A DNA stretch of 47,801 bases from an uncultured Hyphomicrobiales bacterium (GCA_964631625.1 CAZVZP010000001.1:1-47801), one strand, 5' to 3'. Positions 6,610-41,521 are shown, counted from the stretch's first letter. The notes: a model not told the origin generated them from the sequence alone. Program-made: numbers and translations.

Positions 6610-6834
6610 ATGCTCTATCTCACGCGCAAGCCCGGCGAAGCCATTATGATCAACGATGCGATCGAGGTCACGGTCATCGAGATCAGGGGCAAGTCGGTCA
6701 AGCTCGGCTTCACCTTCCCGCCGCAGGCGACCGTCCTGCGCAAGGAGATCTTCGAGAAGATCCGCCAGGAGAACATCGAGGCGGCCAAGGCCGCGGCCGA
6801 ACTGAGTCCGCGAGGGGTCAAGCGCGCCGAGTAG
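6610..6834 (+). CDS. csrA: Carbon storage regulator CsrA (RNA-binding translational regulator) with C-terminal extension
   Basis: 74 aa: MLYLTRKPGEAIMINDAIEVTVIEIRGKSVKLGFTFPPQATVLRKEIFEKI..., colinear with CsrA/RsmA. It is the only plus-strand gene between minus-strand neighbours. Confidence 0.9.
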   Translation: MLYLTRKPGEAIMINDAIEVTVIEIRGKSVKLGFTFPPQATVLRKEIFEKIRQENIEAAKAAAELSPRGVKRAE

Positions 6835-7717: not shown

Positions 7718-7727
7718 GCCGGGCTCC

Positions 7728-8543
7728 CTAACGCAGATAGCGGAAGGCGCGCCGATGGAGGTAGCGGATCGCCTGGTCGGTGACGAGTCCGATGATGCCG
7801 ATCGCGAGCACGCCCGCGATCACCTCCGGGGTCTTGCCGAAGCGGCGCGAGGCCCAGATCACGTGCCCGATGCCGTCGTTGGAGGCAACGATCTCCGCAA
7901 CGATGACGTAGGACCAGCACCAGCCGAGAGTGATCCTCAAGTTGTCCACCATGGTGGGCAGCATGGCGGGCAGCACGATCGAGCGCATGACTTGGCGCGA
8001 TTTCGCGCCGAGCGTGTACCCGATCTCGGCATACTCGTGGGGGACGCGTCGCGCGTCATCGGCGATCAGGAGCACGAGCTGGAAGAAGGTGCCCATCCAG
8101 AGGAGCGCGATCTTGGCCACCTCGCCGATGCCGAGCCAGATCACCGTCAAGGGCACGAGCGCCGGCACCGGCAGATAACGGACGAGGTCGATCACCGGCT
8201 CGCTCATGCCGCCGACGATCCGGAAGCTGCTCATGAAGACGCCGAGCGGGATCGCCATGAGCGCCGAGATCACGAAGGCCACGCCGACCCGGAAAATGCT
8301 GATGCCGATGTCGTGGATGAAATCGAAGTCGCGGAAGAGGCGCACGAAGGCCGCCACGATCTCCCAGGGCGCCGGCAGGAACTGCGCCTTGATCAGGCCC
8401 AGCTGAGTGATCGCGATCCACAGGAGTATCGCGGCCACGAAGGCGGCGACGGCGAGCCCGAGCTCGATCGTGCGCGTGGTCGTGCCCCGGAAAATGAACA
8501 GGGATTTCCAGGGCGAGGGCGCATTGGGGTCCCGCTGTGGCAT
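7728..8543 (-). CDS. ABC transporter permease (TauC/SsuC-like)
   Basis: 271-aa hydrophobic ORF with multiple predicted TM segments. Lies directly upstream of the ATPase gene. Confidence 0.85.
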   Translation of the reverse strand: MPQRDPNAPSPWKSLFIFRGTTTRTIELGLAVAAFVAAILLWIAITQLGLIKAQFLPAPWEIVAAFVRLFRDFDFIHDIGISIFRVGVAFVISALMAIPLGVFMSSFRIVGGMSEPVIDLVRYLPVPALVPLTVIWLGIGEVAKIALLWMGTFFQLVLLIADDARRVPHEYAEIGYTLGAKSRQVMRSIVLPAMLPTMVDNLRITLGWCWSYVIVAEIVASNDGIGHVIWASRRFGKTPEVIAGVLAIGIIGLVTDQAIRYLHRRAFRYLR

Positions 8544-8611
8544 CGCCTCCCCCGGAAACGAGGCGGGGACCGGATCGACGAGACCGGCCCCCGACCATCG
8601 TCACGAATTGA

Positions 8612-9634
8612 TCAGCGGGTGTGGCCGTCGAACAGGCCGACGAGCAGCGCGTTGCTCATGTGGTGCTGCGCATCGAGCGGGGCGTCGGCCGTCCCGTTCT
8701 CGACGTTGAGCTGCATGACCTGATCGAAGATGCCGAAGACCTCTCCGGGCGCGTCCGGCGTGCCGAAGTACTTCACGGCGTCCTCGTAGCTCGTGTACTT
8801 GCCGCCGGCGAGCGCCTCGGCCATCTCCTCGGGCGTCAGGTTGAAGAAGGTCGCCATGATCTTGGTGTCCTCCTCGGGATTCGCGAGGTAGTGGTCGACC
8901 GCCCGATAGATCGCCCGTAGATAGGCGCGGATGAGCTCGGGGTTTTTCTCGATCAGCTCGTTGTGGAAGAACCAGACGTCGAAGATCAGGCCCGGAAAAG
9001 CCGAGGAATCAACAAGCTTATAGGCTCCTTCGCGTCCGCTCTGCGAGACGATCTGGCTCATCACCGGCTCGTAGGAGGCGACCGCCATGATCGAGGGATC
9101 GCCGAACACCGCGACGCCATCGGCCGTCGCGATATGCACGGTGTTGACGTCCGCGAGCGTCATGCCGTTGCATTCATCCTTCAGCCGCTTCTGCAGCAGA
9201 AGGATGCCGGGAATCGTCGGCTCGAAGGCGACGGTCTTGCCCTTGAGATCGCACACGCTCTTAATCGAGCCGTCGACCACCACACCGTCGCCGCCCAGCG
9301 ACAGGTCCTCGGCCGCGACAATGGTGCCCATGGTGTCCGCCGTGCGCGGGCGGCTTTGGTACTCGCCGATAGTGCGCGAGTTGCAGTTGATGTGGCCCGC
9401 GTCCATGGCCGCAAGCTGAACCTGCAGGTCGTCGTCGAAGATGTACTCGACCTCGACCTCCTCCTCCTTGAAGTAGCCGAGGTCGTCGGCGAGTTTGTTG
9501 ATCCCCTGGAAGGGCCAGAAGGTGATGGCGCAGACGAGCTTGTCGAGGTCGACTGCGGCCGCGGGCTTGGGCGCTGCGCTCAAGGTTCCGAGCGCGATCA
9601 GCGCCGCCACGAGAATCGCGAAAATCCGAAGCAT
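8612..9634 (-). CDS. ABC transporter periplasmic substrate-binding protein (NMT1/THI5-like)
   Basis: The ORF track gives 8612..9760. The internal ATG at 9634 (MLRIFAILVAALIALGTLSAAPKPAAA, a signal peptide) is preceded by GGGAGG. Confidence 0.8.
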   Translation of the reverse strand: MLRIFAILVAALIALGTLSAAPKPAAAVDLDKLVCAITFWPFQGINKLADDLGYFKEEEVEVEYIFDDDLQVQLAAMDAGHINCNSRTIGEYQSRPRTADTMGTIVAAEDLSLGGDGVVVDGSIKSVCDLKGKTVAFEPTIPGILLLQKRLKDECNGMTLADVNTVHIATADGVAVFGDPSIMAVASYEPVMSQIVSQSGREGAYKLVDSSAFPGLIFDVWFFHNELIEKNPELIRAYLRAIYRAVDHYLANPEEDTKIMATFFNLTPEEMAEALAGGKYTSYEDAVKYFGTPDAPGEVFGIFDQVMQLNVENGTADAPLDAQHHMSNALLVGLFDGHTR

Positions 9635-9800
9635 GGCGAATGAGACCTCCCTTGTTTCTCTCACGGCGCAGCCGAGCGAAGGCCTCCGCCGCACCGGTCC
9701 GTGCCCGCCACCGCCGGGTGACGGGCCGCACGTCCCTGACGGCTCAAAGGATGACGCCAAAGACCCGCGCCAGCAACGAGTTTTCCGCCGCGCACGACGG

Positions 9801-9908: not shown

Positions 9909-10202
9909 ATGAGCGATTCCCGCCGCACCGACGCCGCCGCCGTGGCGCTGAAATACGAGCGGCCCAAGGATCCGGCGCCCCGGGTGACGGCCGCTGGGCG
10001 CGGCGCCGTGGCCGAGCAGATCATCGCTCTGGCCCTGGCCAACGGCGTCGCCGTGCGCGAGGACCACGACTTGGCCGAGCTCCTGGCCGAGCTCGAGATC
10101 AACAGCGTCATTCCGCTGCCGGCCTTTGCCGCGGTCGCGGAAATCCTCGCCTACCTCTATCGCCTGAACGGCGCCACTGCGGCGCAGGAGCGCAGCTCAT
10201 GA
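9909..10202 (+). CDS. Stand-alone FlhB C-terminal-domain-like protein (FlhX/YlqH-like, EscU/YscU family)
   Basis: 97 aa: AVALKYERPKDPAPRVTAAGRGAVAEQIIALALANGVAVREDHDLAELL...IPLPAFAAVAEILAYLY. It matches the part of FlhB that follows the NPTH cleavage site. No NPTH motif and no TM region. Confidence 0.8.
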   Translation: MSDSRRTDAAAVALKYERPKDPAPRVTAAGRGAVAEQIIALALANGVAVREDHDLAELLAELEINSVIPLPAFAAVAEILAYLYRLNGATAAQERSS

Positions 10203-10550: not shown

Positions 10551-10901
10551 ATGGACTTCGACGCCTACTTAAGGTTCGCCCTCGCACTCGCGCTCGTGCT
10601 CGGGCTGATCGGCCTGGCCGCCTACCTGGCCCGGCGCTTCGGCCTGGGCACCCGCACGGGCCCGAGCGGGCCCAAGCGCGGCCGCCGGCTTGCCGTGCTC
10701 GAAGTCTTGCCGCTCGACCCCAAGCGGAGGCTGGTGCTCATCGCGCAGGATGAGAGCGAACATCTGTTGCTCTTGGGCCCGAGCCACGATCTCGTCATCG
10801 CGGGCCCGGGCGGCAACGCGCCGCAGCCTGATTTCCGCGCGGCCTTGGCCGAGGCCGCTCGAGGCACGGCACCCGAAGATGCCTCCGGCCCTCGTCCATG
10901 A
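10551..10901 (+). CDS. fliO: Flagellar biosynthesis protein FliO
   Basis: 116 aa. Single N-terminal TM segment (ALALALVLGLIGLAAYLARRF), then LAVLEVLPLDPKRRLVLI. Sits immediately upstream of fliP with an ATGA overlap. Confidence 0.8.
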   Translation: MDFDAYLRFALALALVLGLIGLAAYLARRFGLGTRTGPSGPKRGRRLAVLEVLPLDPKRRLVLIAQDESEHLLLLGPSHDLVIAGPGGNAPQPDFRAALAEAARGTAPEDASGPRP

Positions 10902-11644
10902 CCCGCCGGCTTCTGCTCGCGCTGGGGCTCGCCGCCGCCCTCGTCCTCCCGGCGGGGGCCGCCGGGGCTCAGGAGCTCACGCTCGACCTCGGCGGCGAAG
11001 AGGGCACGCTGACCGGCCAACTGTTCCGCCTGATCGCGCTCATCACGATCTTGAGCGTGGCGCCGGGCATTCTGGTCGTAGTCACCTCGTTCACCCGCAT
11101 CGTGATCGTCTTCTCTCTGCTGCGCAGCGCCCTCGGCTTGCAACAGACGCCGCCCAACATGGTCATCATCAGCCTCGCGCTGTTCTTGACCGCCTTCATT
11201 ATGGGCCCGACGCTCGAGAAGGCGTACGACGACGGCATCGCGCCCTTAATCGCCGAGGAGATCACGGAGGACGAGGCGTTCGATCGCACCGTCGCGCCGC
11301 TGCGCGGCTTCATGCTCAATCAGGTGCGCGAGAGCGACCTCGCGCTCTTCATGGACATGGCCGAGGAGCCCGCCGCCGAGGCGCCCGAAGAGATCTCGCT
11401 GCGCGCGCTCGTGCCCGCCTTCATGGTGAGCGAGTTGCGGCGCGCCTTCGAGATCGGCTTCCTGGTCTTCGTCCCGTTCCTGATCATCGACATGGTGGTG
11501 GCCTCGATTCTGCTGTCGATGGGCATGATGATGCTGCCGCCGGTCATGGTCTCGCTGCCCTTCAAGCTGATCTTCTTCGTGCTCGTCGATGGCTGGCACA
11601 TGCTGGCCGGCAGCCTGGTCGAGAGCTTCGTCTTCACGCCGTAG
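10898..11644 (+). CDS. fliP: Flagellar type III export apparatus protein FliP
   Basis: 248 aa with a signal peptide. Contains the conserved stretches SVAPGILVVVTSFTRIVIVFSLLRSALGLQQTPPNMVIISLALFLT and MMMLPPVMVSLPFKL. Confidence 0.95.
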   Translation: MTRRLLLALGLAAALVLPAGAAGAQELTLDLGGEEGTLTGQLFRLIALITILSVAPGILVVVTSFTRIVIVFSLLRSALGLQQTPPNMVIISLALFLTAFIMGPTLEKAYDDGIAPLIAEEITEDEAFDRTVAPLRGFMLNQVRESDLALFMDMAEEPAAEAPEEISLRALVPAFMVSELRRAFEIGFLVFVPFLIIDMVVASILLSMGMMMLPPVMVSLPFKLIFFVLVDGWHMLAGSLVESFVFTP

Positions 11645-23776: not shown

Positions 23777-24211
23777 TCAGGCGTCTTGATCGTACTTGGC
23801 GAGCTCGACCCGCGCCCTCAGCTCGATTTCGTTCAGAATCCCCCGTAGCCTCGGCTCGAGATCCCTCTGGCGCTCGGCCTCGACCTCTCTTTGCAGGCGC
23901 AGCAGGGCAGCCTTCGGGATGCCACCCGCGAGCAGCCCCATGCGGATTTCGTCCAAGCGGTCGAGCAGCCGGCCGCCGCGGGCGAGGTCCTTGCTGCGGC
24001 CCGACAGCGGATCGCCGACCTCCTGAGCCGCAAGCAACGTGCCGATCGCCGAGACGCCGAAAGCCGCGCCAGCTTCAATAGGGACGCCGGCCGCCGAGGC
24101 CTCCTCGGCCGCCTCGCCGACCACGAAGCGGGGCTTGGCCGCGCCATTGCCCTTGCCGCCAACGCGGCGCAATTGGCCGGAGCCAAACAGCCGCGTGGAT
24201 TCAATCTTCAT
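23777..24211 (-). CDS. fliX: Flagellar assembly regulator FliX
   Basis: 144 aa from ATG 24211 (MKIESTRLFG...). Divergent from flgI, as in Caulobacter. C-terminal helical region is LLDRLDEIRMGLLAGGIP...LNEIELRARVELAKY. Confidence 0.65.
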   Translation of the reverse strand: MKIESTRLFGSGQLRRVGGKGNGAAKPRFVVGEAAEEASAAGVPIEAGAAFGVSAIGTLLAAQEVGDPLSGRSKDLARGGRLLDRLDEIRMGLLAGGIPKAALLRLQREVEAERQRDLEPRLRGILNEIELRARVELAKYDQDA

Positions 24212-24275
24212 CGGGGTGATTCGCGCCAACACCGCAGGTCGCGCCGTTCGCAGGCGAGCATCGGCCACCTCCTCT

Positions 24276-26366: not shown

Positions 26367-28154
26367 ATGTCGATCACATTGGCCCTCTACAACGCGGTGA
26401 GCAGCCTGCAGGTCAACCAGATCGGCCTGTCGACGACCGCGCAGAACGTGAGCAATGCGAACACCGAAGGCTATTCGCGCAAGGTGTTGGCCGTCGAAAA
26501 TCGGATCGTCGATGGCCGCGGCGTTGCGGTCGACGTCTCGTCGATCTTCCGCGTGGTCGACCGCTTCCTTGTGGGCGAGATGCGCCGGCAGCTGAGCGAG
26601 TACAACAGCGCGCTCGCGGTCGACGACTTCTACACGCAGATGCAGAACCTGTTCGGCGCGCCCGGCAACAACTCCACCCTTTCGGCCGACCTGTCGCAGC
26701 TCACGAGCGCGCTCGAGGCCCTGTCGAGCACGCCGGAGAGCGCGGGCCTGCGCTTCGAGGTGATCGCCGCGGGCGAACGGATCGCGCGCAATATCGTCCG
26801 CCTCGCGCAGGACATTCAGACCTTGCGCCACCAGGCCGATCAGCAGATCAAGGCCGCCGTCGACGACATCAACGCGAAGCTCGAGGAGATCGAGACGCTC
26901 AACATCGAGATCAGCCGCGCGGTCGCCGAGGGACGCGAAGTTCCCGACCTCGAGGATCGCCGGGATCTGGCAGTCAACTCCATCGCAAACCTCATCGATC
27001 TCAACGTGGTCGCGCAGTCGAACGGCATGGTCGCCTTGCTCACGCAAAACGGCCATGTGCTGCTCGACGGCACCCGGCGGCTCCTCGACTACAGCCCCGC
27101 CTCCACCGTGACGCAGACCTCGACCTTCGACGCCATCACGATCTACTCGCTCGATGAGGACGGCGCAATCATCGGCGAGGGCGATGTGCTCGTGAGTTCG
27201 GGCAACAGCACGACCGTCGCGAGCGACGTCCTTTCGGGCAAGATCGAGGGGCTGCTGCAGGCCCGTGACCACGAGCTCTACGACCTCGCGCGGCAAGTCG
27301 AGGCCTACGCCGCCGCGCTCCGCGATCAGATCAATGCCGTCCACAACCAGGGCGTCGGCTTTCCCCCGCCCGCCTCGCTCACGGGCACGCGCACCGTGGC
27401 CGCCACCGATGCCTTCCAGGCCACGGGCTCGGTGCGCATCGCCGTGTTGGACGGCGACGGCCTCATCGTCACCGCGGCCGACATCGATCTCTTGGCGCTC
27501 GGCGCGACCACCGTGGCCGACCTGATCACGACGATCAACGCCGCGCTCGGCGGCGATGCCACGGCGTCGATCGTCAACGGCAAGCTTGTCATCGCTGCCA
27601 CCAACTCGGGCAATGGCATCGCAATCAACGACTCCGGCACGGCCGAGACCATGACGGGCCGGGGCTTCTCCCACTACTTCGGTCTGAACGATTTCTTCGT
27701 CGGCACGAGCGCCGCGACGCTCGCCGTGCGCTCCGACCTCGCGGACAACCCGAATTTCGTCTCGACCGCCATCCTGTCGATCACGGCCGCCGCCGGCGGG
27801 CGGGGCATCACCCGAGGCGACAACCGCGCCGTGGTCGCGCTCGCCGAGCTCATGGCAACACCGGTCGCTTTTCAGGCGGTCGGCGGTCTTCCCCAGGCCA
27901 ATCTGACCCTGAACGAGTTCGCCGGCGCGATCGTCGGCCTCAACGCGGTGCGCGCATCGAATGCGCAGGATACCCGTGCGGCCCGCGAGCTCCTGGCCGA
28001 GGACCTAGTCCATCGCGTGCAGTCGGTGTCGGGCGTCAACATCGACGAGGAGCTCGCCAAGCTCATCATCTTCCAAAACGCCTACAACGCGTCGGCCCAG
28101 ATCATCCGCATCGCCGACGAGATGTTCGAAACCCTGATCGGGATCCTCGAATAG
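26367..28154 (+). CDS. flgK: Flagellar hook-associated protein 1 FlgK
   Basis: 595 aa. The N-terminus is LQVNQIGLSTTAQNVSNANTEGYSRK. The C-terminus is LIIFQNAYNASAQIIRIADEMFETLIGI. Confidence 0.92.
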   Translation: MSITLALYNAVSSLQVNQIGLSTTAQNVSNANTEGYSRKVLAVENRIVDGRGVAVDVSSIFRVVDRFLVGEMRRQLSEYNSALAVDDFYTQMQNLFGAPGNNSTLSADLSQLTSALEALSSTPESAGLRFEVIAAGERIARNIVRLAQDIQTLRHQADQQIKAAVDDINAKLEEIETLNIEISRAVAEGREVPDLEDRRDLAVNSIANLIDLNVVAQSNGMVALLTQNGHVLLDGTRRLLDYSPASTVTQTSTFDAITIYSLDEDGAIIGEGDVLVSSGNSTTVASDVLSGKIEGLLQARDHELYDLARQVEAYAAALRDQINAVHNQGVGFPPPASLTGTRTVAATDAFQATGSVRIAVLDGDGLIVTAADIDLLALGATTVADLITTINAALGGDATASIVNGKLVIAATNSGNGIAINDSGTAETMTGRGFSHYFGLNDFFVGTSAATLAVRSDLADNPNFVSTAILSITAAAGGRGITRGDNRAVVALAELMATPVAFQAVGGLPQANLTLNEFAGAIVGLNAVRASNAQDTRAARELLAEDLVHRVQSVSGVNIDEELAKLIIFQNAYNASAQIIRIADEMFETLIGILE

Positions 28155-28163
28155 GAGAGGGCC

Positions 28164-29066
28164 ATGGAACGTATCGCCACGATCGGCCAGCAGACGTTCC
28201 TTCTGGGCAACATCATCGATGCCCAGGCGCGCATGTTCAACACCCAGACGCAGATCTCGACAGGCAAGCTCACCCAGTTCCACACCGATATCGCGCGCGA
28301 TACGACGCGGCTCTTGGATTTCGAGACCAACCTCGGGCGCACCGAGCAGTTCATTGCCAACAACAACCGCCTGACCGCGCGACTCGAGCGCATGGATTCG
28401 GCGTTGTCGGGCATGTTCGACGCCCTTTCCCGGCTCCGCCCGCTCCTCCTGCAGCGCCAGAACGCGGCCACCGGCGACGCCGGGGCCTTCGACGTCGAGT
28501 TCGAGAACCTGCTCGAGACGGTCGCGGGCCTCATGAACACTCGCGAGGACGGCCGCTACCTGTTCTCCGGGTCGATGACGAACGTCGCCCCGGTGGCCGA
28601 TCCAGTACCTGATCCCGCGGCCTTCGGCGTGCCCGATGCGACGTATTACCAGGGCGATTCCATCCAGCTCAGCGTGCGCGTGGACGTCGATTTTACCGTC
28701 AGCTACGGCATCGAGGGCGACCGGACCGGCTTCCAGAGGATGATCGGGGCCTTCAAGGCCGCGATCGAAGGCGTCGCGACGAACGACGCCGGAATGCTCG
28801 ATACCGCGATCGATCTGGCGAGCCAGGCGATCACCGATATCGCGAATTACCGCAACGAAGTGGGCTCGAACTTGAAGGTCGTGGACGAGACGACAAGCCG
28901 TCATCTCGACTTCAAGGTCTTCCTGCTCAATCAAATCGACTCGATCGAGAACGTCGACGTGACCCAGGCCGTCATCCGACTGACCAACGACCAGACGATC
29001 CTGCAGGCGTCCTTCATGACGCTCTCGCAATTGAGCCAGATCACGCTGGTCGAGTTCCTTCGTTAA
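28164..29066 (+). CDS. flgL: Flagellar hook-associated protein 3 FlgL
   Basis: 300 aa with flagellin-like N- and C-terminal helices (QISTGKL...; VDVTQAVIRLTNDQTILQASFMTLSQLSQITLVEFL). Confidence 0.85.
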   Translation: MERIATIGQQTFLLGNIIDAQARMFNTQTQISTGKLTQFHTDIARDTTRLLDFETNLGRTEQFIANNNRLTARLERMDSALSGMFDALSRLRPLLLQRQNAATGDAGAFDVEFENLLETVAGLMNTREDGRYLFSGSMTNVAPVADPVPDPAAFGVPDATYYQGDSIQLSVRVDVDFTVSYGIEGDRTGFQRMIGAFKAAIEGVATNDAGMLDTAIDLASQAITDIANYRNEVGSNLKVVDETTSRHLDFKVFLLNQIDSIENVDVTQAVIRLTNDQTILQASFMTLSQLSQITLVEFLR

Positions 29067-29117: not shown

Positions 29118-29639
29118 ATGGCGACAGGTCTTCAAACGACGGCGGCTCAGCGTTCGGCGACCCCTGTGGAGGCGCTGCCCTCCCCTGCGGCGGAGAGCGA
29201 TGAGGTCGTCACGATCCATTCCCGGTACGGCGAGGTTCAGGTCCGCAAGAGCTCGATCGTGGTGCTTCCCGCCGGCCTGCTCGGTTTTCCGCAATGGCAG
29301 CGTTTCGCGCTGATCGACACCGAGGATCCGCGCTATGCGCAGTTCCGCCTGCTGCAGTCGGTGGACGAGCCGGAACTGTGCTTCATCGTCCTGCCGATCG
29401 CGCCGCGCAATGAGCTCATCGACTACGCCGACATCGAGGCCGCGTGCCGCATGATCGGGATCGGCACCGCCGAGCTCGCGGTTCTCCTTCTGGTTGCGGT
29501 CCGCAAGAGCGAAGAGACGGTCGAACTCACGGCAAACCTGCGCGCGCCGCTTCTGATCGATGCGGCCAGCTTCCGGGGCGCACAGCACGTGCTCGGCAAC
29601 GAGCGTTACCCCGTGCGTTTCCCGCTCTCCGGGGAATAG
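29118..29639 (+). CDS. fliW: Flagellar assembly factor FliW (CsrA antagonist / flagellin-binding protein)
   Basis: 173 aa: IHSRYGEVQVRKSSIVVLPAGLLGFPQWQRFALI...FRLLQSVDEPELCFIVLP...LTANLRAPLLID. Carries about 30 aa of N-terminal extension compared with typical FliW. Confidence 0.85.
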   Translation: MATGLQTTAAQRSATPVEALPSPAAESDEVVTIHSRYGEVQVRKSSIVVLPAGLLGFPQWQRFALIDTEDPRYAQFRLLQSVDEPELCFIVLPIAPRNELIDYADIEAACRMIGIGTAELAVLLLVAVRKSEETVELTANLRAPLLIDAASFRGAQHVLGNERYPVRFPLSGE

Positions 29640-29669: not shown

Positions 29670-30941
29670 ATGCGCATCCATCGGCTCGCTCTCCTCGATC
29701 GCTTCGCCTGCGCTGGAGCCGAATGCCCGGATACCTGTTGCCGGGCCTGGACCATGGCCGTCGACGAACCGACCCTCGCGCGCTACCGCTCGGAGGCGCC
29801 GGAGCTCTTGAGAGCGGTGGTCGAGAGCCCCGAGGGTGCCGCGATGCAACGCAACGGCGAGGGCGACTGCTGCGTGATGCTCAAAGACGGTCTCTGCGGC
29901 ATCCAGATCGAACGCGGCGCGGCCTTTCTGGGCGACGCGTGCCACTTCTACCCGCGGGTGACCCGCCGGCTCGGCGAGCGGGTGCGCATGTCGGCATGCC
30001 TCTCCTGCCCGAGTATCGCGGAGATCGCGCTGTTCGATGAGGACGCGCCTCACTACCGCGAGCGCGAGGTGGAGCGGCTGCCCCACATCGTGCGCGATGT
30101 CCTGCCCCAGGGTCTCGATGCGCGGCGCGGGGAAGCGATCATCGACGACTTTCTCGCGCTCGCGGGCGATCCCACAGTTACGCCCGAGCGGGCCGTCGTG
30201 CGCATCGTGGACGTCGCCCAAGTCCTCTCGCACCAGCCGGTCGAACGCTGGCCCGACGGTGTGCCCTTCCTGATCGACTCGGTCGATGAGCGGCTCGCGG
30301 TGCCGACGTCCCGGCCGGAAGATGCCCACCGTCTTCTCCTCGCGCTCGCCGCGCTCGCCAAGGCGACCCGCCATCCCATGGGCGCGCGCTTCAAGACAAC
30401 CTTCGAGATTATGGAACGCGCGCTCGGCGTAAGGCTCGATTGGCAGACCTTCGCCCTTGAGAGGCGCGTCGAGGGCCCCGATCTCGATGCCGCCTATCCG
30501 CGCCTTGGCGTGCTTTGGCAATTCGCCCGCGCGCGCCTTGCGCCGGTTTTGCGACGGTGGGTGCAGGCCGAGCTCGACGCGATGAGCTTCCCCTTCGCCG
30601 GGCTCGGCGGCTCACCCGCCGAGCGGGCGGTTCTGCTGGCCATCCGTTTCGCCACCGTGCGTCTCGCCCTGATGAGCGCGGTCGCTGAGCACGGTCCCAC
30701 CCTCGAGCGCACGGTCATCGTGCGCACTGTGCAAAGCCTCTCCCGGCTGCTCGATCATCTGGCCGATCCCACGCTCTCGCTCGCCATCTACCGCGAAGCC
30801 GGCTGGGAGCACGTCAGCCGCTTGCGCGGCCTGCTCGGGGACGAGTCCGAGCCGTGCGAGGAGGAACGGCAAGAGCTGCCGCCTGCGGCCCACGCCCATA
30901 CTTCGCCCCCTTCCCCGCTGGCTTGGCCGGCCTCCGCGTGA
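29670..30941 (+). CDS. fliB: FliB-like flagellin lysine-N-methylase (Cys-rich YkgJ-type N-terminus)
   Basis: 423 aa. The N-terminal FACAGAECPDTCCRAWTMAVDE resembles the FliB motif (FxCxGxxCxxxCC.W). Further Cys clusters are GDCCVMLKDGLCGIQ and ACLSCP. SD GGAG lies 7 nt upstream. Confidence 0.6.
   Translation: MRIHRLALLDRFACAGAECPDTCCRAWTMAVDEPTLARYRSEAPELLRAVVESPEGAAMQRNGEGDCCVMLKDGLCGIQIERGAAFLGDACHFYPRVTRRLGERVRMSACLSCPSIAEIALFDEDAPHYREREVERLPHIVRDVLPQGLDARRGEAIIDDFLALAGDPTVTPERAVVRIVDVAQVLSHQPVERWPDGVPFLIDSVDERLAVPTSRPEDAHRLLLALAALAKATRHPMGARFKTTFEIMERALGVRLDWQTFALERRVEGPDLDAAYPRLGVLWQFARARLAPVLRRWVQAELDAMSFPFAGLGGSPAERAVLLAIRFATVRLALMSAVAEHGPTLERTVIVRTVQSLSRLLDHLADPTLSLAIYREAGWEHVSRLRGLLGDESEPCEEERQELPPAAHAHTSPPSPLAWPASA
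30867..30881. promoter_or_regulatory. Perfect CGGCA-N5-TGCCG dyad upstream of the TPR-GT operon sigma-54 promoter (inside the fliB-like 3' end)
   Basis: CGGCAagagcTGCCG. Its centre is about 129 bp upstream of the -24 GG at 31003. Confidence 0.4.
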
Positions 30942-31001: not shown

Positions 31002-31017
31002 TGGCACGGCGCTTGCA
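31002..31017 (+). promoter_or_regulatory. Sigma-54 (-24/-12) promoter of the TPR-GT1 / GT8 / TPR-GT2 operon
   Basis: TGGCACggcgcTTGCA, a full match to TGGCAC-N5-TTGCA. Lies 19-40 nt upstream of the candidate starts. Confidence 0.7.
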
Positions 31018-34054: not shown

Positions 34055-36109
34055 ATGGTCACGCCCGAGCAGACCTTCGGCCAGGCGCTCGGCCATCATC
34101 GGGCCGGCCGGCTCGAGACCGCCGAACGGCTCTATCGCGAGGTACTCGCTGCGGTGCCCGGGCATTGCGATGCCCTGGTCAACTTGGGCGCCATCGCGGC
34201 GGCCCGGAGCCGCTTCGACGAGGCGGCGGCGCTGTCGCAGCGCGCGCTTGAAAACAACCCGCAGTGCCTCAACGCGCTCGTCAACTTGGCCGCGGCACGC
34301 TACGCCCAGGGCGACGCCGATGGCGCGGCCGAGGCCCTCGAGCGTGCCGTCGGACTGGCGCCGCAAGATTTGCCGCTGCTGCTCAATCTGGCCGGTTTGC
34401 GACGCGCACAAGGGCGCGCGGCGGAGGCGCGTGCGCTGCTCGAGCGCGCCCACGAGCGCGCACCGAGCGATCCGGAGCCGCTTGTTCAACTGGCACTCGA
34501 GGCGCTCGCCGGAGGCCGCTTGGAAGAGGCCGAGCGCCATCTGCGTGCGGCCCTCGCGCGCGAGCCGCGCCACGCCGAGGCCCAGTTCAATCTGGCCCGG
34601 CTGCGCGAGCAGGCGGGCGATGCGCAAGGCGCGGTCGAGCATTACCGCCGGGCCCTTCAGGCAAACACCCGACATCCGGGCGCGCTCAACAACTTCGGCC
34701 TCTTGCTCGACAGGCTGGGCAAGAAGGCCGAGGCCGCAATGCTGCTGCGCCGTGCTGTTGCCGCCGAACCCGCCCGGGCGGAATTTCATTACAATCTGGG
34801 CAGCGTGCTGGCGGATCAGGATGAGTTCGACGGCGCCACGATTGCGCTCGGCGAGGCACTGCGCCTCAATCCGGGCTACCGCGAGGCGCGGCTCCGCCTC
34901 GCGAATCTCTACACCGCAACCGGCGCCTACGAGGCGGCCGAGCGCTGCTACCGCTCCGTGCTTGCGCAGGAACCAAGCCACGCGGTCGCCCACGCCAACC
35001 TGGGTGTGCTTCACGAGTACCGGGGCGCCATGGCCGAGGCCGAGGCCGAGTTCCGGCAAGCCATCGCCCTCGATCCCGGTTACGCCGCGGCGCACTTCAA
35101 TCTCGCGTTGCTCCTGTTGCGCGAAGAGCGTTTCGCCGAAGGCTGGCGCGAGTACGAGTGGCGCTGGCAGGTGATCGACAGCCTGCCCCCGCGGGCGCCC
35201 CTGCCGCTGTGGGACGGCAGCCCGCTCGATGGCCGCGGCCTCCTCGTGCTGGGCGAGCAGGGCCCCGGGGACATGGTGATGTTCGCGCAATGCTTGCCCG
35301 AGGTGCTCGAACAGACAAATCGGGTCGTGCTCACCGCCGAGCCCCGTCTCGTGGACCTGCTGGCGCGCTCCTTTCCGCGGGTCGAGATAAGACCAGCCGA
35401 TTATCGGGAAGTGCCGGACGTTCCCGAAGGCTGCGAGGTCGCTCTTGCGATCGGCAGCTTGCTCGGCCTCTTTCGCCGTCGGCCGACGGACTTCGCGCAC
35501 ACGCACATCCCCTACCTCGTGCCCGATCCAGAAGCCGTCGCGCGCTGGCGCGAACGCTTCGCCGCCCTCGGCCCGGGCCCTAAGATCGGTCTCTCCTGGG
35601 CCGGCGGCGCGAGCCCCAGCGAGCGGCGTTTCCGCGGCCTCGATAGTGCCGACCTCGAGCCGCTGCTCGAGCTTCCCGAATGCCGTTTCGTCAATCTGCA
35701 ATACGGTAAACGCCGAGGCGATGGCACGGTGCTGGCCGAGCGGACCGGAATCCCGATTGCCGACTGGGCCGACGCGGATCCGGTGAGCCGCTTCGATGAC
35801 CACGTGGCGCAAATCGCTTGCCTCGATGCCATCGTCTCGGTCGCGAACACGGTCATCCACGCGGCGGGCGCGCTTGGCACGCCCGCGCTGGTGCTCACTC
35901 CCGCGACGCCAAGCTGGCGCTGGGGGCTCAGGCGAAGCCACTGTCTCTGGTATCCGGCCGTCGAACTCTTGCGCCAAGGCGCGGGCGAGCCCTGGCGGGC
36001 GGTCGCCGAGCGCGCCGCCGCGCGGCTCGCGCATCGGCTCGCACGCCGGGAGGGCGACGAGGCGGCCGAGGCGCGCGCACCGATGGGACCGGCAGATTTT
36101 GCCGCTTAA
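34055..36109 (+). CDS. TPR repeat + GT9-like glycosyltransferase, paralog 2 of 5
   Basis: 684 aa from ATG 34055 (MVTPEQTFGQALGHHRAGRLETAERLY). About 9 TPR units. C-terminal motifs are GEQGPGDMVMF, IGLSWAGG, LDAIVSVANTVIHAAGALGTPALVLTPATPSWRW and CLWYPA. Confidence 0.8.
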   Translation: MVTPEQTFGQALGHHRAGRLETAERLYREVLAAVPGHCDALVNLGAIAAARSRFDEAAALSQRALENNPQCLNALVNLAAARYAQGDADGAAEALERAVGLAPQDLPLLLNLAGLRRAQGRAAEARALLERAHERAPSDPEPLVQLALEALAGGRLEEAERHLRAALAREPRHAEAQFNLARLREQAGDAQGAVEHYRRALQANTRHPGALNNFGLLLDRLGKKAEAAMLLRRAVAAEPARAEFHYNLGSVLADQDEFDGATIALGEALRLNPGYREARLRLANLYTATGAYEAAERCYRSVLAQEPSHAVAHANLGVLHEYRGAMAEAEAEFRQAIALDPGYAAAHFNLALLLLREERFAEGWREYEWRWQVIDSLPPRAPLPLWDGSPLDGRGLLVLGEQGPGDMVMFAQCLPEVLEQTNRVVLTAEPRLVDLLARSFPRVEIRPADYREVPDVPEGCEVALAIGSLLGLFRRRPTDFAHTHIPYLVPDPEAVARWRERFAALGPGPKIGLSWAGGASPSERRFRGLDSADLEPLLELPECRFVNLQYGKRRGDGTVLAERTGIPIADWADADPVSRFDDHVAQIACLDAIVSVANTVIHAAGALGTPALVLTPATPSWRWGLRRSHCLWYPAVELLRQGAGEPWRAVAERAAARLAHRLARREGDEAAEARAPMGPADFAA

Positions 36110-36138
36110 TTGGCGAAACTTTCCGGCAACTTTTGCCG
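36090..36138. promoter_or_regulatory. Two CGGCA-N5-TGCCG dyads upstream of the flagellin sigma-54 promoter (candidate enhancer)
   Basis: CGGCAgatttTGCCG (36090-36104) and CGGCAactttTGCCG (36124-36138). Their centres are 34 bp apart, and about 116 and 82 bp upstream of the -24 GG. Confidence 0.45.
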
Positions 36139-36211
36139 ACCCGTTTACGCCGGAAAAAGACAACCCGTTGAAAATGCGCGCTCGAAGGCCTTGCGAGGCA
36201 AGTGCGGATCG

Positions 36212-36227
36212 TGGCACAGCGTTTGCA
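36212..36227 (+). promoter_or_regulatory. Sigma-54 (-24/-12) promoter of the flagellin gene
   Basis: TGGCACagcgtTTGCA, a full consensus match, 82 nt upstream of the fliC ATG. Confidence 0.75.
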
Positions 36228-36240
36228 GCATTAAGGGCCA

Positions 36241-36258
36241 GGACGGCGGAGTCCGTCC
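36241..36258 (+). promoter_or_regulatory. 5'-leader hairpin presenting GGA in the loop (candidate CsrA binding site 1)
   Basis: GGACGG-cGGAgt-CCGTCC, at the predicted 5' end of the fliC mRNA. A second GGA lies within the SD AGGAG at 36295-36299. Confidence 0.4.
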
Positions 36259-36308
36259 CATCGACGGCAAGTAGCCGGAACCAACCATCCATGTAGGAGA
36301 TCATTCCA

Positions 36309-37475
36309 ATGGCTCTTAACATTATTTCGAACTACGCTGCGAACGTTGCGCAGCGCAACTTGGTTCGGACCGACGCCGCGGCCACCGCTTCGCTCGCGAA
36401 GCTGTCCTCGGGCACTCGCGTGGTGAGCGCCAAGGACGACGCCGCATCGCTCGCCATCGGCAAGCGTCTCGAGGCCGAAATCGGTGCCCTGCGCCAAGCG
36501 CAGGTCAACGCCGGTCAGGCCGCGTCGATGCTGCAAATCGCCGACGGCGCGCTGGCGACCCAGGCCGACATCATCGTCCGGATGAAGGTCCTGGCCGTAC
36601 AGTCCTCCTCGAGCCAGCTGTCCAGTACCGAGCGTACACTCCTTAACAACGAGTTTACCTCGCTGCGGGATGAGTTGAACCGTATCGCCCAAGACACAGA
36701 CTTTAACGGCATAAAGTTGCTGAGCGGCTCGACCACGTTCTCGGCGAGCTCGGTCGGCACCGACATCGCCGTGGTGGACGGCTTCGAGCAGTTCATCTTC
36801 GGCTCGGATCCGGGCGGCACGTTCATCTCGGCGGGCGATACCATCGCCATCACCTACAACACCGGCACGGACATCTTGACCGTGACGAACGAGGTGACGG
36901 GTCAGGCGGAGACGGCGAGCGTGAGCGCGGCGCCTTCGGCGGGTTCGTTCTCGGATGTGGTGTTCGGCGATTTCGGCCTCACCGTCCGCTTGAACTCGCT
37001 GTTTGCGACCGGCACCGCGGTGACCGGCGCCAACGCAAAGTTCATCGTGGCCGGCGGCACGTCGAACACGCTGACGCTCTCGTTCCGTGTTGGCACGGGC
37101 ATCAACTCGGAGGATGTCATCAGCTTCTCGCTAGGCAAGTCCACCGCCGTGGCCCTTGCAGCGGGCCTTGACACCGACGACATCCTGACGGTGGCAGCGG
37201 CCGAGACCGCAATCACCGACACGACGACGGCAATCGACGAGGCTAACTCCATCCGAGCCGACGTGGGTGCGGCCCAGAACCGGGTGACCTTCGCGGCCTA
37301 CAACCTCGGGTCGAGCATCGAGAACGCGGAAGCGGCTCGAAGCAACCTGTTGGACCTCGACATCGCGGCGGAGACGACGAACTTCGTCTCCAAGCAGATC
37401 CTGTTCCAGGCTGGTGTGGCCATGCTCGCGCAGGCGCAGCAGCTGCCGCAGGCCCTGCTCAAACTCCTCGGGTAA
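36309..37475 (+). CDS. fliC: Flagellin
   Basis: 388 aa. The conserved N-terminus is LAKLSSGTRVVSAKDDAASLAIGKRLEAEI. The C-terminus is RADVGAAQNRVTFAAYNLGSSIENAEAARSNLLDLDIAAETTNFVSKQILFQAGVAMLAQAQQLPQ. The variable middle is Ser/Thr/Ala/Gly-rich. Confidence 0.95.
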   Translation: MALNIISNYAANVAQRNLVRTDAAATASLAKLSSGTRVVSAKDDAASLAIGKRLEAEIGALRQAQVNAGQAASMLQIADGALATQADIIVRMKVLAVQSSSSQLSSTERTLLNNEFTSLRDELNRIAQDTDFNGIKLLSGSTTFSASSVGTDIAVVDGFEQFIFGSDPGGTFISAGDTIAITYNTGTDILTVTNEVTGQAETASVSAAPSAGSFSDVVFGDFGLTVRLNSLFATGTAVTGANAKFIVAGGTSNTLTLSFRVGTGINSEDVISFSLGKSTAVALAAGLDTDDILTVAAAETAITDTTTAIDEANSIRADVGAAQNRVTFAAYNLGSSIENAEAARSNLLDLDIAAETTNFVSKQILFQAGVAMLAQAQQLPQALLKLLG

Positions 37476-37491
37476 ACCCGAGCGGAAGCGT

Positions 37492-37516
37492 GGCGGAGGG
37501 GAAAATCCCCTCCGCC
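37492..37516 (+). terminator. Hairpin after fliC (terminator/attenuator candidate)
   Basis: GGCGGAGGGG-aaaat-CCCCTCCGCC, a 10-bp stem 17 nt after the stop. No T-tract. Confidence 0.5.
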
Positions 37517-37568
37517 GCCTTCCTCAACCCGAGAGCATATCGCGGAGTAAGGCTTCGGTAGAACGGCC

Positions 37569-37914: not shown

Positions 37915-40900
37915 ATGGAATCAGTGTTCAACCTGGGCTCGCTCACCGTCGATCCGACGACGGGCCGCGCGAGCTTCTCGGGTCTCGGCACCGGCATCGA
38001 CATTCAAGGCGCGATCACGGCGATCCTGCAGGCCAAGCGGCTGCCGGCGGTCACGCTCGAGACCCGCATCACGGCAAATCAGGAAAAGATCGTAGCCCTC
38101 CAGGCGCTGCGCACGGCCTTGAATGCGGTCAAGAGCTCGCTCAACCGCTTGCGCGGCGCGGTCAGCGTCGGCAACACGAACAACGTGTTCCACGCCAAGA
38201 CCGTGTTCGCCAGCACCTCGCGCCTCGACGGGTTGAGCCCCTCCGCGGCCGGCAATCTCGTCGGGCTCACCGTGTCGAACGCGGCGGCCAAGGGCGTGCA
38301 CGAGATCGAAATCCGCCGCGTCGCCACGGCGCACAAGATCGCGAGCTCGAGCTTCGCGAGCGCGAGCACCGCGCTCGGCCTCTCCGGTTCCTTCCAGATC
38401 GGCAGCGGCAGCACGGCCGCGACGATCACGGTCTCGGCCACCGATACGCTCCTCGACATCCGCGACCGAATCAACAACGCCAACACCGGAACCAACGCCA
38501 CGGGCGTCTCGGCAAGCATGGTCACGGTGAGCAGCACCCAGAACATGCTCGTGGTCTCGAGCGATGCGACCGGCGAGACCCTTCAGATCACGGATTCGGG
38601 CAGCGTGCTCTCGGGCCTCGGCCTGTCGGCCACAGGCGGTGCGGGCGGCTACCGCAATGGGCTCGCAAGCAGCAAGATCGAGAGCACCGATGGCTTCGAC
38701 GCGGTTCTCTTCGACGGCACCGAGGCCGACAACGCCTTCCGCCTGAGCTACGTCGCGGCGACCCGCACGCTGACGCTGACCCGGGGCGACGGCACCTCCG
38801 AGTCCGTGACGCTCTCCGCCGATACGATCGCGGCGGGCGAGACGGAAGAGGCGAGCTTCGACGACTTCGGCGTCACGGTCATGCTCAATTCGAGCTTCAA
38901 CAAGGCCGCCGACATTACGGTGAGCGCCGATACGGTATCGATCACGGGCGGAACGGGCGCGATCGATGCCGGCACGGTGACCATCGCCGACAGCGCCGGA
39001 AACATTTCCGGGATCACGAGCTCGACGCTGACCTTCGGCAACCTCGCCACGCCCGCGGCGATCAGCGTCTCGGTCGGCAGCTTTACCGGCACCTTCAACG
39101 GCACGAGCACCGGCACCAAGACGGTTACGCTGACAAACGGGAGCAATTCGCTGACCGTGCAGTTCAACGTGACCACGGTTTTCGACGGCACCGAGACCGC
39201 CGGCTCGATCACGCTCAACGAGCTCGAGAATGCGCTGGGCGCCACCGGCGACCCGTTCGCAAGCGTCCTGCAAAGGCCGCAGAGCGCGCGCATCACCGCC
39301 GACGGCCTGACCGACGGCACCCATCACGAGTCGCTCGTCGTGGCCGATTCCTCCGCCCAACTCGGCACCTACCTGAGCGATCTGACCTTCCCCGGCAGCT
39401 TCACGATCAACGGAACGAGCTCGCGCACGATCAACTTCGCCTCGACCGACACGCTCGAGACCCTGCGCGACGCCATCAACGTCGAGACCGTGAACACCGG
39501 GGTGACGGCCACCATCGTCGAGGATGGCGGCGGCTACCGCCTCGACTTCGACTCGGCGAGCGCGTTCACCCTCACCGATACGACCGGCTTGCTCGGCGAG
39601 CTCGGTGTCAACAACGCGCTCGTCATCGAGCGCTCGAGCAACACCGTGACCGATCTCTTCGCGGGCGTCACGCTTTCGCTCTTCGCGGCCGAGCCGCGCA
39701 CGACGATCAAGCTCGAAATCGAGCAGGACCTGAGCGGGGTCAAGACCGAGATCACGGGGTTTGCCACCGCCTACAACTCGGCACGTTCGATCATCAACCA
39801 GCACCAGCTGACCGATTTCACGACCGGCGTCAAGAGCGAGGATGCCGACGTGCTGTTCGGCAACCGCGTGCTCGCCGACGCCCAGCGCCGGCTCGCCAAC
39901 GCCGTGAGCGAGGATGTGTCGGGCGTCGATGCCGCCTTCGCGGTGCTCCGCCAGATCGGCATCGAGCTCGTCGACAACACGCTGATCACCGATCCTCTGC
40001 TCAAGGACACGCTCGAGATCGACGAGACCGCGCTCGATCAGGTGCTGCTGTCCAATCTCGCCGACGTGCGCCGCCTCTTCGCCTTCGAGTTCACGAGCTC
40101 CGATCCCCGTGTGGTTTTGAGCCGCTTCACGGCGAACACCCAATACTCGGCCTCGGGCTATGTGCTCAACATCGGCACCTTCGGCCAGCGCAACAAGGAT
40201 TCGGCGAGCGTTGCGAGTGCAAGCGCCATGCTCAACGATGCGGTCAATAGTTTTGGCGCCACCACCTCGGGCAGCTTCACCGTCAACGGCGCGTCCGTTG
40301 CCTACAACGTCGCCACGGACACCCTCGATACGCTGATCAGCAACATGAATGCGGCGTTCGTTACGGCCGGCAACGACGTCACCGCGAGGAAACGCACCGA
40401 CGAGGACGGCAACTTCTTCATCGATCTTCAATCAAACACCCAGACGGCGCTCACGATCGGCGGGGATACGGGCGACCTCGTAGCACTCCTCAACTTCCAG
40501 CCCGACCTCGACATGCTCGACAGCGCGAACATCGGCGGAGCCGCGAACGGCAGCGACGACGGCAGCGCCACGGTCTCGGGGCGCGCGATCACGGCAACCG
40601 ATCAGACCTCGGCCGACGGCCTCGGGGTGATCTACACGGGCACGGGCTCGGCCAGCGCAATTCAGATCGACTTCACCGTGGGGGTCGCCGCCGACCTGTT
40701 CGATGCGCTGGAGCAGTTCGTCGATACGATCGACGGCTCGATCCAAGGGGAGATCGCGGCTCTCGAAGCCCAGAACGAGGTATCCCAAGACCGGGTCGAG
40801 CAGATCGATTTCCGACTCGATCTCTTGCAGGCGTCTCTGCTCGCGCGCTTCGTCGCGATGGAGACGGCGCTCACCCGCATGAAACAGCTTCTAGAGGGCC

Positions 40901-40941
40901 TCAAGGTCCAGTTCGAGGCGCTCAGCAATGCCAACAAGTAA
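37915..40941 (+). CDS. fliD: Flagellar filament cap protein FliD (HAP2), unusually long (1008 aa)
   Basis: The N-terminus is SGLGTGIDIQGAITAILQAKRLPAVTLETRITANQEKIVALQAL. The FliD_C-like region is LFAGVTLSLF...ITGFATAYNSARSII, followed by the terminal coiled coil IDFRLDLLQASLLARFVAMETALTRMKQ. There are three GSFxI/VNG...TDTL...IN modules. Confidence 0.9.
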   Translation: MESVFNLGSLTVDPTTGRASFSGLGTGIDIQGAITAILQAKRLPAVTLETRITANQEKIVALQALRTALNAVKSSLNRLRGAVSVGNTNNVFHAKTVFASTSRLDGLSPSAAGNLVGLTVSNAAAKGVHEIEIRRVATAHKIASSSFASASTALGLSGSFQIGSGSTAATITVSATDTLLDIRDRINNANTGTNATGVSASMVTVSSTQNMLVVSSDATGETLQITDSGSVLSGLGLSATGGAGGYRNGLASSKIESTDGFDAVLFDGTEADNAFRLSYVAATRTLTLTRGDGTSESVTLSADTIAAGETEEASFDDFGVTVMLNSSFNKAADITVSADTVSITGGTGAIDAGTVTIADSAGNISGITSSTLTFGNLATPAAISVSVGSFTGTFNGTSTGTKTVTLTNGSNSLTVQFNVTTVFDGTETAGSITLNELENALGATGDPFASVLQRPQSARITADGLTDGTHHESLVVADSSAQLGTYLSDLTFPGSFTINGTSSRTINFASTDTLETLRDAINVETVNTGVTATIVEDGGGYRLDFDSASAFTLTDTTGLLGELGVNNALVIERSSNTVTDLFAGVTLSLFAAEPRTTIKLEIEQDLSGVKTEITGFATAYNSARSIINQHQLTDFTTGVKSEDADVLFGNRVLADAQRRLANAVSEDVSGVDAAFAVLRQIGIELVDNTLITDPLLKDTLEIDETALDQVLLSNLADVRRLFAFEFTSSDPRVVLSRFTANTQYSASGYVLNIGTFGQRNKDSASVASASAMLNDAVNSFGATTSGSFTVNGASVAYNVATDTLDTLISNMNAAFVTAGNDVTARKRTDEDGNFFIDLQSNTQTALTIGGDTGDLVALLNFQPDLDMLDSANIGGAANGSDDGSATVSGRAITATDQTSADGLGVIYTGTGSASAIQIDFTVGVAADLFDALEQFVDTIDGSIQGEIAALEAQNEVSQDRVEQIDFRLDLLQASLLARFVAMETALTRMKQLLEGLKVQFEALSNANK

Positions 40942-41521
40942 CGGCGACGCCCCCAAACAGCCGCGCGTGCTCACGCCGGAACAGCGCGAGCGCCGGCGGA
41001 AGTTCTACGAGTACTGCAAGGCCAAACGAGTCGACAAGACCAGCGCGCCAGCGCGCCCGCTGTGGGAGAACCGCTACTGGTCCCAGGAGATTCTTTCGGC
41101 CTCGCCGCTCGAGTGCCTGGTCAAGCTCTACGACGGCGCCATCCAGTTCCTGCGCCGCGCGGAAAGCGCGACCAAGGGGGGCGATATCGCCGCGCGCTAC
41201 GAGGCGAGTCAGCGGGCCGCGCGCATCATCGAACATCTGGCCGACACCCTCGACCTGCAGCAGGGCGGCGAGGTGGCCGGGAAGCTCGACGCCATCTACA
41301 AGACGGCCCTGCGTCGCCTCATCGAGGTGAACACCCGCAACGACGCTCAGGCCGCGCGCGACGTGATCGGCCTCTTGGAGCCGCTCGTCCGCTCCTGGCG
41401 CGAGCTCGGCGCCCGGCAAGCGGGTGAGGCCGCGCGGCGTGCCGGCCGTCCTCTATTCCCCACCGAGGAGACGCCGCAGGGCAACGGCCGTCCCCGGCAA
41501 GGGGTTTCCGCTACCGTCTGA
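40928..41521 (+). CDS. fliS: Flagellin-specific export chaperone FliS with ~45-aa basic N-terminal extension
   Basis: 197 aa. The FliS core is YWSQEILSASPLECLVKLYDGAIQFLRRAE...AARIIEHLADTLDLQQGGEVAGKLDAIYKTALRRLIEVN...LLEPLVRSWREL. The start overlaps the fliD 3' end by 14 nt. Confidence 0.8.
   Translation: MPTSNGDAPKQPRVLTPEQRERRRKFYEYCKAKRVDKTSAPARPLWENRYWSQEILSASPLECLVKLYDGAIQFLRRAESATKGGDIAARYEASQRAARIIEHLADTLDLQQGGEVAGKLDAIYKTALRRLIEVNTRNDAQAARDVIGLLEPLVRSWRELGARQAGEAARRAGRPLFPTEETPQGNGRPRQGVSATV

Follow-up and report, generated by a model that had tools for sequence, protein, structure and literature searches.

How a bacterium keeps flagellin translation in step with flagellar assembly is the question raised by the leader of fliC, a flagellin gene in a stretch of 47,801 nucleotides (the window) from an uncultured Hyphomicrobiales bacterium (GCA_964631625.1, CAZVZP010000001.1:1-47801). 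Textbook accounts describe a FlaF/FlbT flagellin checkpoint for the Alphaproteobacteria. The window carries csrA, with a C-terminal extension, fliW and fliC, and an initial annotation had proposed from these a checkpoint of the Hag-FliW-CsrA type, in which CsrA would bind a GGA displayed in the hexaloop of a 5' hairpin (here H0) and a second GGA in the Shine-Dalgarno (SD) sequence. The three genes, the hairpin and the SD sequence are all present where that annotation placed them (Table 1). It had also reported no flaF or flbT between the flagellar genes; neither protein has a match there or anywhere in the 2.79-Mb assembly, which is an estimated 96% complete, in searches that detected the Caulobacter control. 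We show below that the gene content, including a single long csrA and a class-wide mutual exclusion of FliW and FlbT, agrees with the proposed checkpoint, and, judged from sequence, FliW-CsrA control of flagellin translation is most likely present in this organism. Conservation does not, however, fall on the proposed binding site: the loop of H0 varies freely among orthologous leaders, and it is two hairpins further downstream, H1 and H2, that are conserved and linked to FliW.

Twin hairpins in the flagellin leader

Comparison of flagellin leaders revealed two short conserved blocks downstream of H0, GGC-ANGUA-GCC and AUCC-AWGUA-GGAG, which correspond in the window to H1 and to H2, the latter with its 3' arm inside the SD sequence. 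A search pattern built from both blocks (GGCANGTAGCC-N6-24-CCAWGTAGGAG, 20 fixed bases) gave 83 matches in a scan of 596 Gb of reference genomes, against about 10 expected by chance in our own estimate, which assumes equal base frequencies. About 74 of the matches sit 2-10 nt (mostly 6-8) 5' of the ATG of a flagellin gene. Their sources are labelled Rickettsiales, Midichloriaceae, Geminicoccales, Azospirillum, Dongiaceae, Kiloniellaceae, Magnetococcales and unclassified Alphaproteobacteria; fliW lies inside the same 8-kb locus in 31 cases and csrA in none.

Bases that the pattern left free pair as the two hairpins predict. Of 72 distinct leaders, 67 form the fourth pair of H1, against a mean of 32 in shuffled sequences, none of which reached 67 in 2000 trials; the pair occurs as GC, CG, UG, AU, GU and UA. 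In H2, 71 of the 72 have, at a position left free, the U opposite the A of GGA. In an independent set of leaders, drawn from the class sample described below, three H1 pairs out of four vary in both partners, the closing C-G pair being invariant, and the H2 stem is invariant in 28 of 28. The compensatory changes in H1 indicate selection on structure. H0, H1 and H2 all appear in the minimum-energy folds of nearly all 17 orthologous leaders that have a sigma-54-type promoter. Rfam holds no family for this leader (positions 36000-36500 compared with 4227 families gave two chance-level matches, E = 4-5), and our searches of the literature turned up no account of a FliW-CsrA leader element in Alphaproteobacteria.

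The arrangement is not uniform. The number of distal sites varies between lineages, as some flagellin leaders have three H1-type hairpins (L138/L139 from G261 and G089; L168 from G212), in one example GGGC-AAGUA-GCCC, then UUGGC-AGGAU-GCCAA, then H2. A second proximal design was seen in L171, L172 and L183-L185 (genomes G087, G388, G236, G315 and G162), where CGC-ARGWA-GCG stands just 5' of an AAAGGAA SD sequence that does not itself form the 3' arm. Lone H1-like and H2-like words elsewhere in the genome under study lie mostly inside genes and were taken as chance; one H2-like UCC-AGGUA-GGA (contig C2, 37573-37600) stands just 5' of the start of a 165-amino-acid secreted protein and is probably also due to chance.

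Association with FliW, CsrA and FlbT across the class

Peptide patterns gave no match to FliW relatives in the reference genomes, which led us to search whole genomes by protein family. The FliW, CsrA and FlbT families were run on an even sample of 401 Alphaproteobacteria genomes, as was a covariance model built from the element. With the motif cut set at 28 bits (flagellin leaders score 28 or more, noise 19-24), 29 of 30 motif-positive genomes, which span about 22 families, were also FliW-positive (Fisher test, 9e-24). The thirtieth, G342, was rejected as a false match that lies 5' of a recombinase gene and has a poor H1. CsrA was found in 65 of the 70 FliW-positive genomes and FlbT in 0 of the 70, the sample containing 149 FlbT-positive genomes in total (Fisher test, 2e-16). 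FliW and FlbT are thus mutually exclusive across the 401 genomes, and the motif is missing from the flagellin genes of the FlbT-type genomes. FlbT also had no match in 40 genomes of the same order as the window. A 2026 preprint describes CsrA as occurring together with FliW, and FlaF together with FlbT; we found no report in the literature of mutual exclusion of FliW and FlbT within the class.

CsrA occurs without FliW in 17 genomes of the sample, three of which (G118, G285 and G305) have FlbT as well. These may represent lineages in which CsrA outlived the loss of FliW.

Loop variants, CsrA and competing explanations

The canonical site of CsrA and RsmE is a GGA in a hairpin loop closed by a C-G pair, with the consensus RUACARGGAUGU from systematic evolution of ligands by exponential enrichment (SELEX), and GGA is the one element considered essential for CsrA binding. 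H1 and H2 resemble this site in being small hairpins with an invariant C-G closing pair and a loop that begins A-N-G. They differ from it in that the pentaloop in this genome, and in about half of the lineages, is A-N-G-U-A and contains no GGA, whereas the orthologous hairpins of other lineages read AGGAU, AGGAA or AGGAUA. This became apparent when flagellin leaders were also taken from the 41 FliW-positive genomes that scored under the 28-bit cut, most of which show the same two hairpins with other loops. Genomes G049 and G363 have GGC-AGGAU-GCC plus UCC-AGGAA-GGA, and G233 has AGGAA in both hairpins; G137, G212, G254, G087 and G388 combine a distal AGGAU or AGGAA with a proximal AAGUA, and G315 has CGC-AGGAU-GCG where G087 has CGC-AAGUA-GCG. 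By our own count from the listing of leaders, the distal loop is of the GGA kind in about 20 genomes and of the GUA type in about 17, the proximal loop in about 7 and about 37, respectively. Loops of the canonical CsrA kind and of the ANGUA kind thus take each other's place on equivalent hairpins. Since other FliW-bearing lineages carry AGGAA or AGGAU loops on the same hairpins, H1 and H2 together are the probable CsrA operator.

A wider proposal is more tentative, and we give it a little less than an even chance. It holds that the twin hairpins, common to the flagellin leaders of those Alphaproteobacteria that bear FliW (Rickettsiales-labelled genomes and Magnetococcales among them), with pentaloops of the form A-N-G-U/A-A/U, would constitute a previously undescribed RNA element that serves as the operator of FliW-type CsrA; that its GGA-less ANGUA loops would be recognised in about half of the lineages; and that FliW and the element would together mark one of two exclusive checkpoints, the other being FlaF/FlbT. 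We know of no CsrA reported to have a relaxed or altered specificity for GGA-less loops.

Several considerations weigh against assigning H1 and H2 to CsrA. In the window neither loop contains GGA, which in the fliC leader stands in the SD sequence (36296-36298) and in the non-conserved loop of H0, and binding of CsrA to GGA-less H1 and H2 loops would be non-canonical or weak. No CsrA residue tracks the loop type among 35 sequences, so that one type of CsrA would have to accept both kinds of loop. H2 has only three base pairs, and one minimum-energy fold exchanges it for another pairing. The initial annotation had suggested folding the leader; the predicted fold does contain H0 and H1, yet the window leader as a whole does not stand out from shuffled sequences (z = -0.52), and its thermodynamic signal is not significant alone. 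The E-values of the covariance model are unreliable (255 of the 401 genomes fall below 0.01), and the bit cut was chosen after the score distribution had been seen. The test of association between motif and FliW ignores shared ancestry; flagellar clusters are inherited as blocks, and part of the association may be historical.

Taken to its limit, this last point would make the link between motif and FliW purely historical, an ancestral leader having been inherited along with the FliW-type cluster and retained only as a good ribosome-binding site. The inclusion of the SD sequence in H2, which would be constrained anyway, fits such an account as well. It is difficult to reconcile, however, with the divergence of the flanking leader, the promoter type (sigma-54 in 17 of the motif leaders, none recognised in the rest) and the flagellin N-termini around hairpins that persist over about 22 families, or with the preservation of H1 pairing through compensatory changes, and we consider it very improbable.

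The lack of GGA and the invariance of CsrA with loop type could also be explained if H1 and H2 were recognised by a factor other than CsrA, such as another RNA-binding protein of the cluster, a ribonuclease or an mRNA-localising factor, with CsrA acting at the SD sequence only or nowhere. The cluster does contain uncharacterised genes, for example that at 29670-30941. On the other hand, H1 has an AGGAA or AGGAU loop in about 20 of about 40 FliW-positive genomes and H2 in about 7, the distribution of the motif follows that of FliW and CsrA and leaves out the flagellin genes of FlbT-type genomes, and no other factor with the same distribution was identified. This explanation therefore appears improbable.

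The H0 hairpin calls for separate consideration. The segment from the predicted transcript start to H1 has a folding energy of -9.7 kcal/mol, which is not significant when compared with dinucleotide shuffles (z = -0.86, p = 0.17). Four genomes of the order have flagellin orthologues that are 62-65% identical. Among the leaders of these and of orthologues found later, a hairpin stands 0-5 nt from the predicted +1 in 17 of 17 sigma-54-type leaders, with unrelated stem sequences; the z-scores of these leaders are all negative (mean -1.93, t-test p = 4e-7, a value that overstates independence since the leaders are related). Because all 17 have a hairpin at this place, H0 can be regarded as real although it does not exceed chance alone, that is, as a conserved predicted 5'-terminal structure whose GGA is not conserved. 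The loop contains GGA in two of the 17 leaders and otherwise reads CUGU, AUCGC, ACGU, CCCGU, CACGA and so on.

Binding of CsrA to the GGAs of the H0 loop and the SD sequence, in the manner of BS1 and BS2 of Bacillus subtilis hag and with no involvement of H1, was the model of the initial annotation. The loop of six nucleotides on a stable stem of six base pairs, right after the predicted start, is what such a model would call for, and the two GGAs are 48 nt apart, a spacing that a single CsrA dimer is reported to be able to span; in G007, the closest relative whose leader is comparable, H0 likewise has a GGA loop (AGGAU). The rarity of GGA among the 17 orthologous leaders nevertheless argues against it, as do the upstream hairpins that correspond to H0 in leaders with other promoter types, which are also without GGA, and the conservation of H1 throughout the class is left unexplained. 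We regard this model as less likely than not, though by no means negligible. For the view that H0 is only a 5'-terminal stabiliser against 5'-end-dependent decay and its GGA incidental, we judge the chances to be about equal. Stem-loops at the 5' terminus are well known to stabilise bacterial mRNAs, and a hairpin that is constant in position and free in sequence and loop is what this role would lead one to expect; the start site from which its position is reckoned is itself a prediction, and stabilisation is compatible with an additional CsrA contact in this genome.

The explanation that we favour, and hold to be rather more probable than its negation, is a FliW-CsrA flagellin switch with H1 and H2 as operator, a fliC gene driven by sigma-54, and H0 protecting the end of the message. 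It would join two known systems, transcription of the Caulobacter type (FlbD-like activator, FliX and sigma-54) and translational control by FliW and CsrA in place of FlaF/FlbT. Transcription of fliC from the sigma-54 promoter would yield a leader of about 71 nt with H0, H1 and H2. H0 most likely protects the mRNA end, and its GGA loop may add a CsrA contact in this genome. One CsrA dimer would bind the loops of H1 and H2, lock H2 and block the ribosome. As long as flagellin is held in the cytoplasm, FliW would be bound to it and CsrA would be free to repress; export of flagellin upon completion of the hook-basal body would release FliW, which would then capture CsrA, and translation would go on. 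Binding to GGA-less loops is the weak point of this explanation and also its most interesting aspect.

Genomic setting and relation to known systems

The window makes up the first 47.8 kb of contig C1 (70.8 kb in all), in an assembly of 318 contigs, and has a G+C content of 67%. Pfam scans recognise in it a large flagellar cluster of alphaproteobacterial type, in the order csrA, a block of ATP-binding cassette (ABC) transporter genes, a gene for a small protein resembling the FlhB C-terminus, fliO, fliP, a CheZ-like gene, cheY, fliM, fliL, flgF, flgG, flgA, flgH, dksA, fliX, flgI, flgK, flgL, fliW, a gene for 423 amino acids, two genes for tetratricopeptide repeat (TPR) proteins, fliC, fliD, fliS and two more TPR-protein genes. 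By tblastn, csrA, fliW and fliC are each present in one copy in the whole assembly.

Table 1. Positions of leader elements, promoter signals and selected genes, counted from the first nucleotide of the window
Feature	Position	Strand	Remarks
Dyads CGGCA-N5-TGCCG	36090-36104 and 36124-36138	+	Regular-expression scan; about 100-150 bp 5' of the predicted start
Sigma-54 promoter TGGCAC-N5-TTGC	36212-36226	+	Consensus sequence; conserved in 17 orthologous leaders
H0	36241-36258	+	GGACGG-cGGAgu-CCGUCC; 6-bp stem, GGACGG 36241-36246 and CCGTCC 36253-36258; loop CGGAGU 36247-36252; GGA 36248-36250
H1	36265-36277	+	Stem CGGC/GCCG; pentaloop AAGUA 36269-36273; in minimum-energy fold
H2	36288-36298	+	Stem UCC/GGA; pentaloop AUGUA 36291-36295
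SD sequence AGGAG	36295-36299	+	Contains the 3' arm of H2
csrA	6610-6834	+	74 amino acids, C-terminal extension, long FliW-binding type; Pfam CsrA, 75.8 bits
ABC transporter genes	6896-9760	-	ATPase, permease, NMT1-like binding protein; Pfam
FlhB C-terminal-like gene	9909-10202	+	Small protein; Pfam Bac_export_2; conserved neighbour of csrA by synteny in relatives
fliO	10551-10901	+	Pfam FliO; after FlhB C-terminal-like gene
fliP	10898-11644	+	Pfam FliP
fliX	23777-24268	-	Caulobacter-type partner of the sigma-54 activator FlbD; Pfam FliX, 106 bits
flgK	26367-28154	+	Pfam
flgL	28164-29066	+	Pfam; directly 5' of fliW
fliW	29118-29639	+	CsrA antagonist and flagellin-binding protein by homology; Pfam FliW, 76 bits; directly after flgK-flgL
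fliC	36309-37475	+	Pfam Flagellin_N and Flagellin_C; ATG at 36309
fliD	37915-40941	+	1008 amino acids; Pfam
fliS	40928-41521	+	Pfam

With the usual -24/-12 spacing, the promoter of fliC predicts a start at about 36238, 3 nt 5' of H0, which removes, as far as prediction goes, the possibility raised by the initial annotation that transcription begins downstream of the hairpin. RpoN is encoded complete on contig C17 (16843-18264, Pfam-confirmed), and an FlbD-like activator with sigma-54 interaction and Fis-type helix-turn-helix domains (Pfam) is encoded on contig C1 outside the window (55097-56494). The latter is the single sigma-54 activator found in the assembly by a regular-expression scan for GAFTGA/ESELFGH, and sigma-54 may mainly serve the flagellar regulon in this organism. 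The two dyads upstream of the fliC promoter, which have similar counterparts 5' of orthologous leaders, probably serve the FlbD-like activator as enhancers. The TPR-protein genes between fliW and fliC have a consensus sigma-54 promoter of their own (TGGCACGGCGCTTGC, 31002-31016), with the same CGGCA-N5-TGCCG dyad at 30867, 120 bp 5' of it, and are probably late genes of the class to which fliC belongs. By homology, RpoN, the FlbD-like activator and FliX match the FlbD/FliX arrangement of Caulobacter.

The initial annotation had described csrA as lying 22 kb from fliW beside unrelated genes. The two genes are indeed on one contig at that distance, and the description is misleading as regards the neighbours. 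In relatives (L014, L016 and L026) csrA stands directly 5' of the FlhB C-terminal-like gene and fliO and the ABC block is missing, whereas in the window the three minus-strand ABC genes part csrA from the FlhB C-terminal-like gene, fliO and fliP. The genes that flank csrA in the window (NmrA-like and ABC ATPase) are not conserved beside csrA in relatives, and the ABC block has the appearance of a segment inserted locally into a flagellar operon. Where csrA and fliW share a contig, they are 20-36 kb apart in many families, and in a few the two are adjacent. Because relatives keep csrA beside the FlhB C-terminal-like gene and fliO, and such a distance from fliW is common, gene order identifies it as a regular member of the flagellar supercluster and no stray gene.

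Among the other genes of the cluster, fliD is unusually long, fliS has an N-terminal extension of about 45 amino acids and a start that overlaps the end of fliD, and the gene at 29670-30941, between fliW and the TPR genes, has no Pfam match. After the stop codon of fliC comes a G+C-rich hairpin, GGCGGAGGGG-AAAA-CCCCTCCGCC (37476-37530), for which reason fliC looks monocistronic.

The nearest parallel for the leader is flaA of Campylobacter jejuni, whose two stem-loops, the second over the ribosome-binding site, both show CsrA footprints (Dugar et al. 2016, PMC4894983). The predicted fliC leader is likewise short, with two stem-loops of which the second spans the site of ribosome binding, and the proposed logic is also alike, CsrA repressing translation with FliW as protein antagonist and no RNA of the CsrB type. 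Unlike in C. jejuni, the loops are AAGUA and AUGUA rather than ANGGA, the SD sequence lies in the 3' arm of the second stem rather than in its loop, the promoter is of the sigma-54 rather than the sigma-28 type, there is an extra 5'-terminal hairpin, and csrA is 22 kb from fliW.

With the Hag-FliW-CsrA system of B. subtilis and the FliW-CsrA complex of Geobacillus (PDB 5DMB), the organism shares a long CsrA of 74 amino acids, a FliW homologue and one main flagellin with GGA at the SD sequence. The best solved relative of both proteins is 5DMB: CsrA matches chain D, aligned through residue 63 with N55 kept, and FliW matches chain A (41 bits). The organism differs from these systems in that fliW and csrA are not adjacent and probably belong to separate operons (flgKL-fliW, and csrA with the flhB-like gene and fliOP), in that it has no conserved GGA hairpin equivalent to BS1, and in transcription by sigma-54 with an activator system of the FlbD/FliX type. 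With Caulobacter crescentus, a member of the same class, it has in common FliX, an FlbD-like activator, RpoN and a sigma-54 flagellin promoter with upstream dyads, together with the task of coupling flagellin translation to assembly through the 5' leader. In contrast to Caulobacter, FlaF and FlbT are absent from this genome, and FlbT from the 40 genomes of its order; the twin hairpin, in turn, was not found at the flagellin genes of genomes of the Caulobacter type.

For the window alone, this amounts to a sound annotation, in an uncultured lineage, of a circuit already known. The natural series of loops at one position (AGGAU, AGGAA, AGGUA, AAGUA and AUGUA) would allow the strictness of CsrA recognition to be probed. 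Against a shared sigma-54/FlbD/FliX transcriptional background, FliW-CsrA and FlaF/FlbT represent alternative ways of solving one task, and the twin-hairpin leader is a concrete candidate operator for the FliW-type branch that could serve as a marker in genome annotation.

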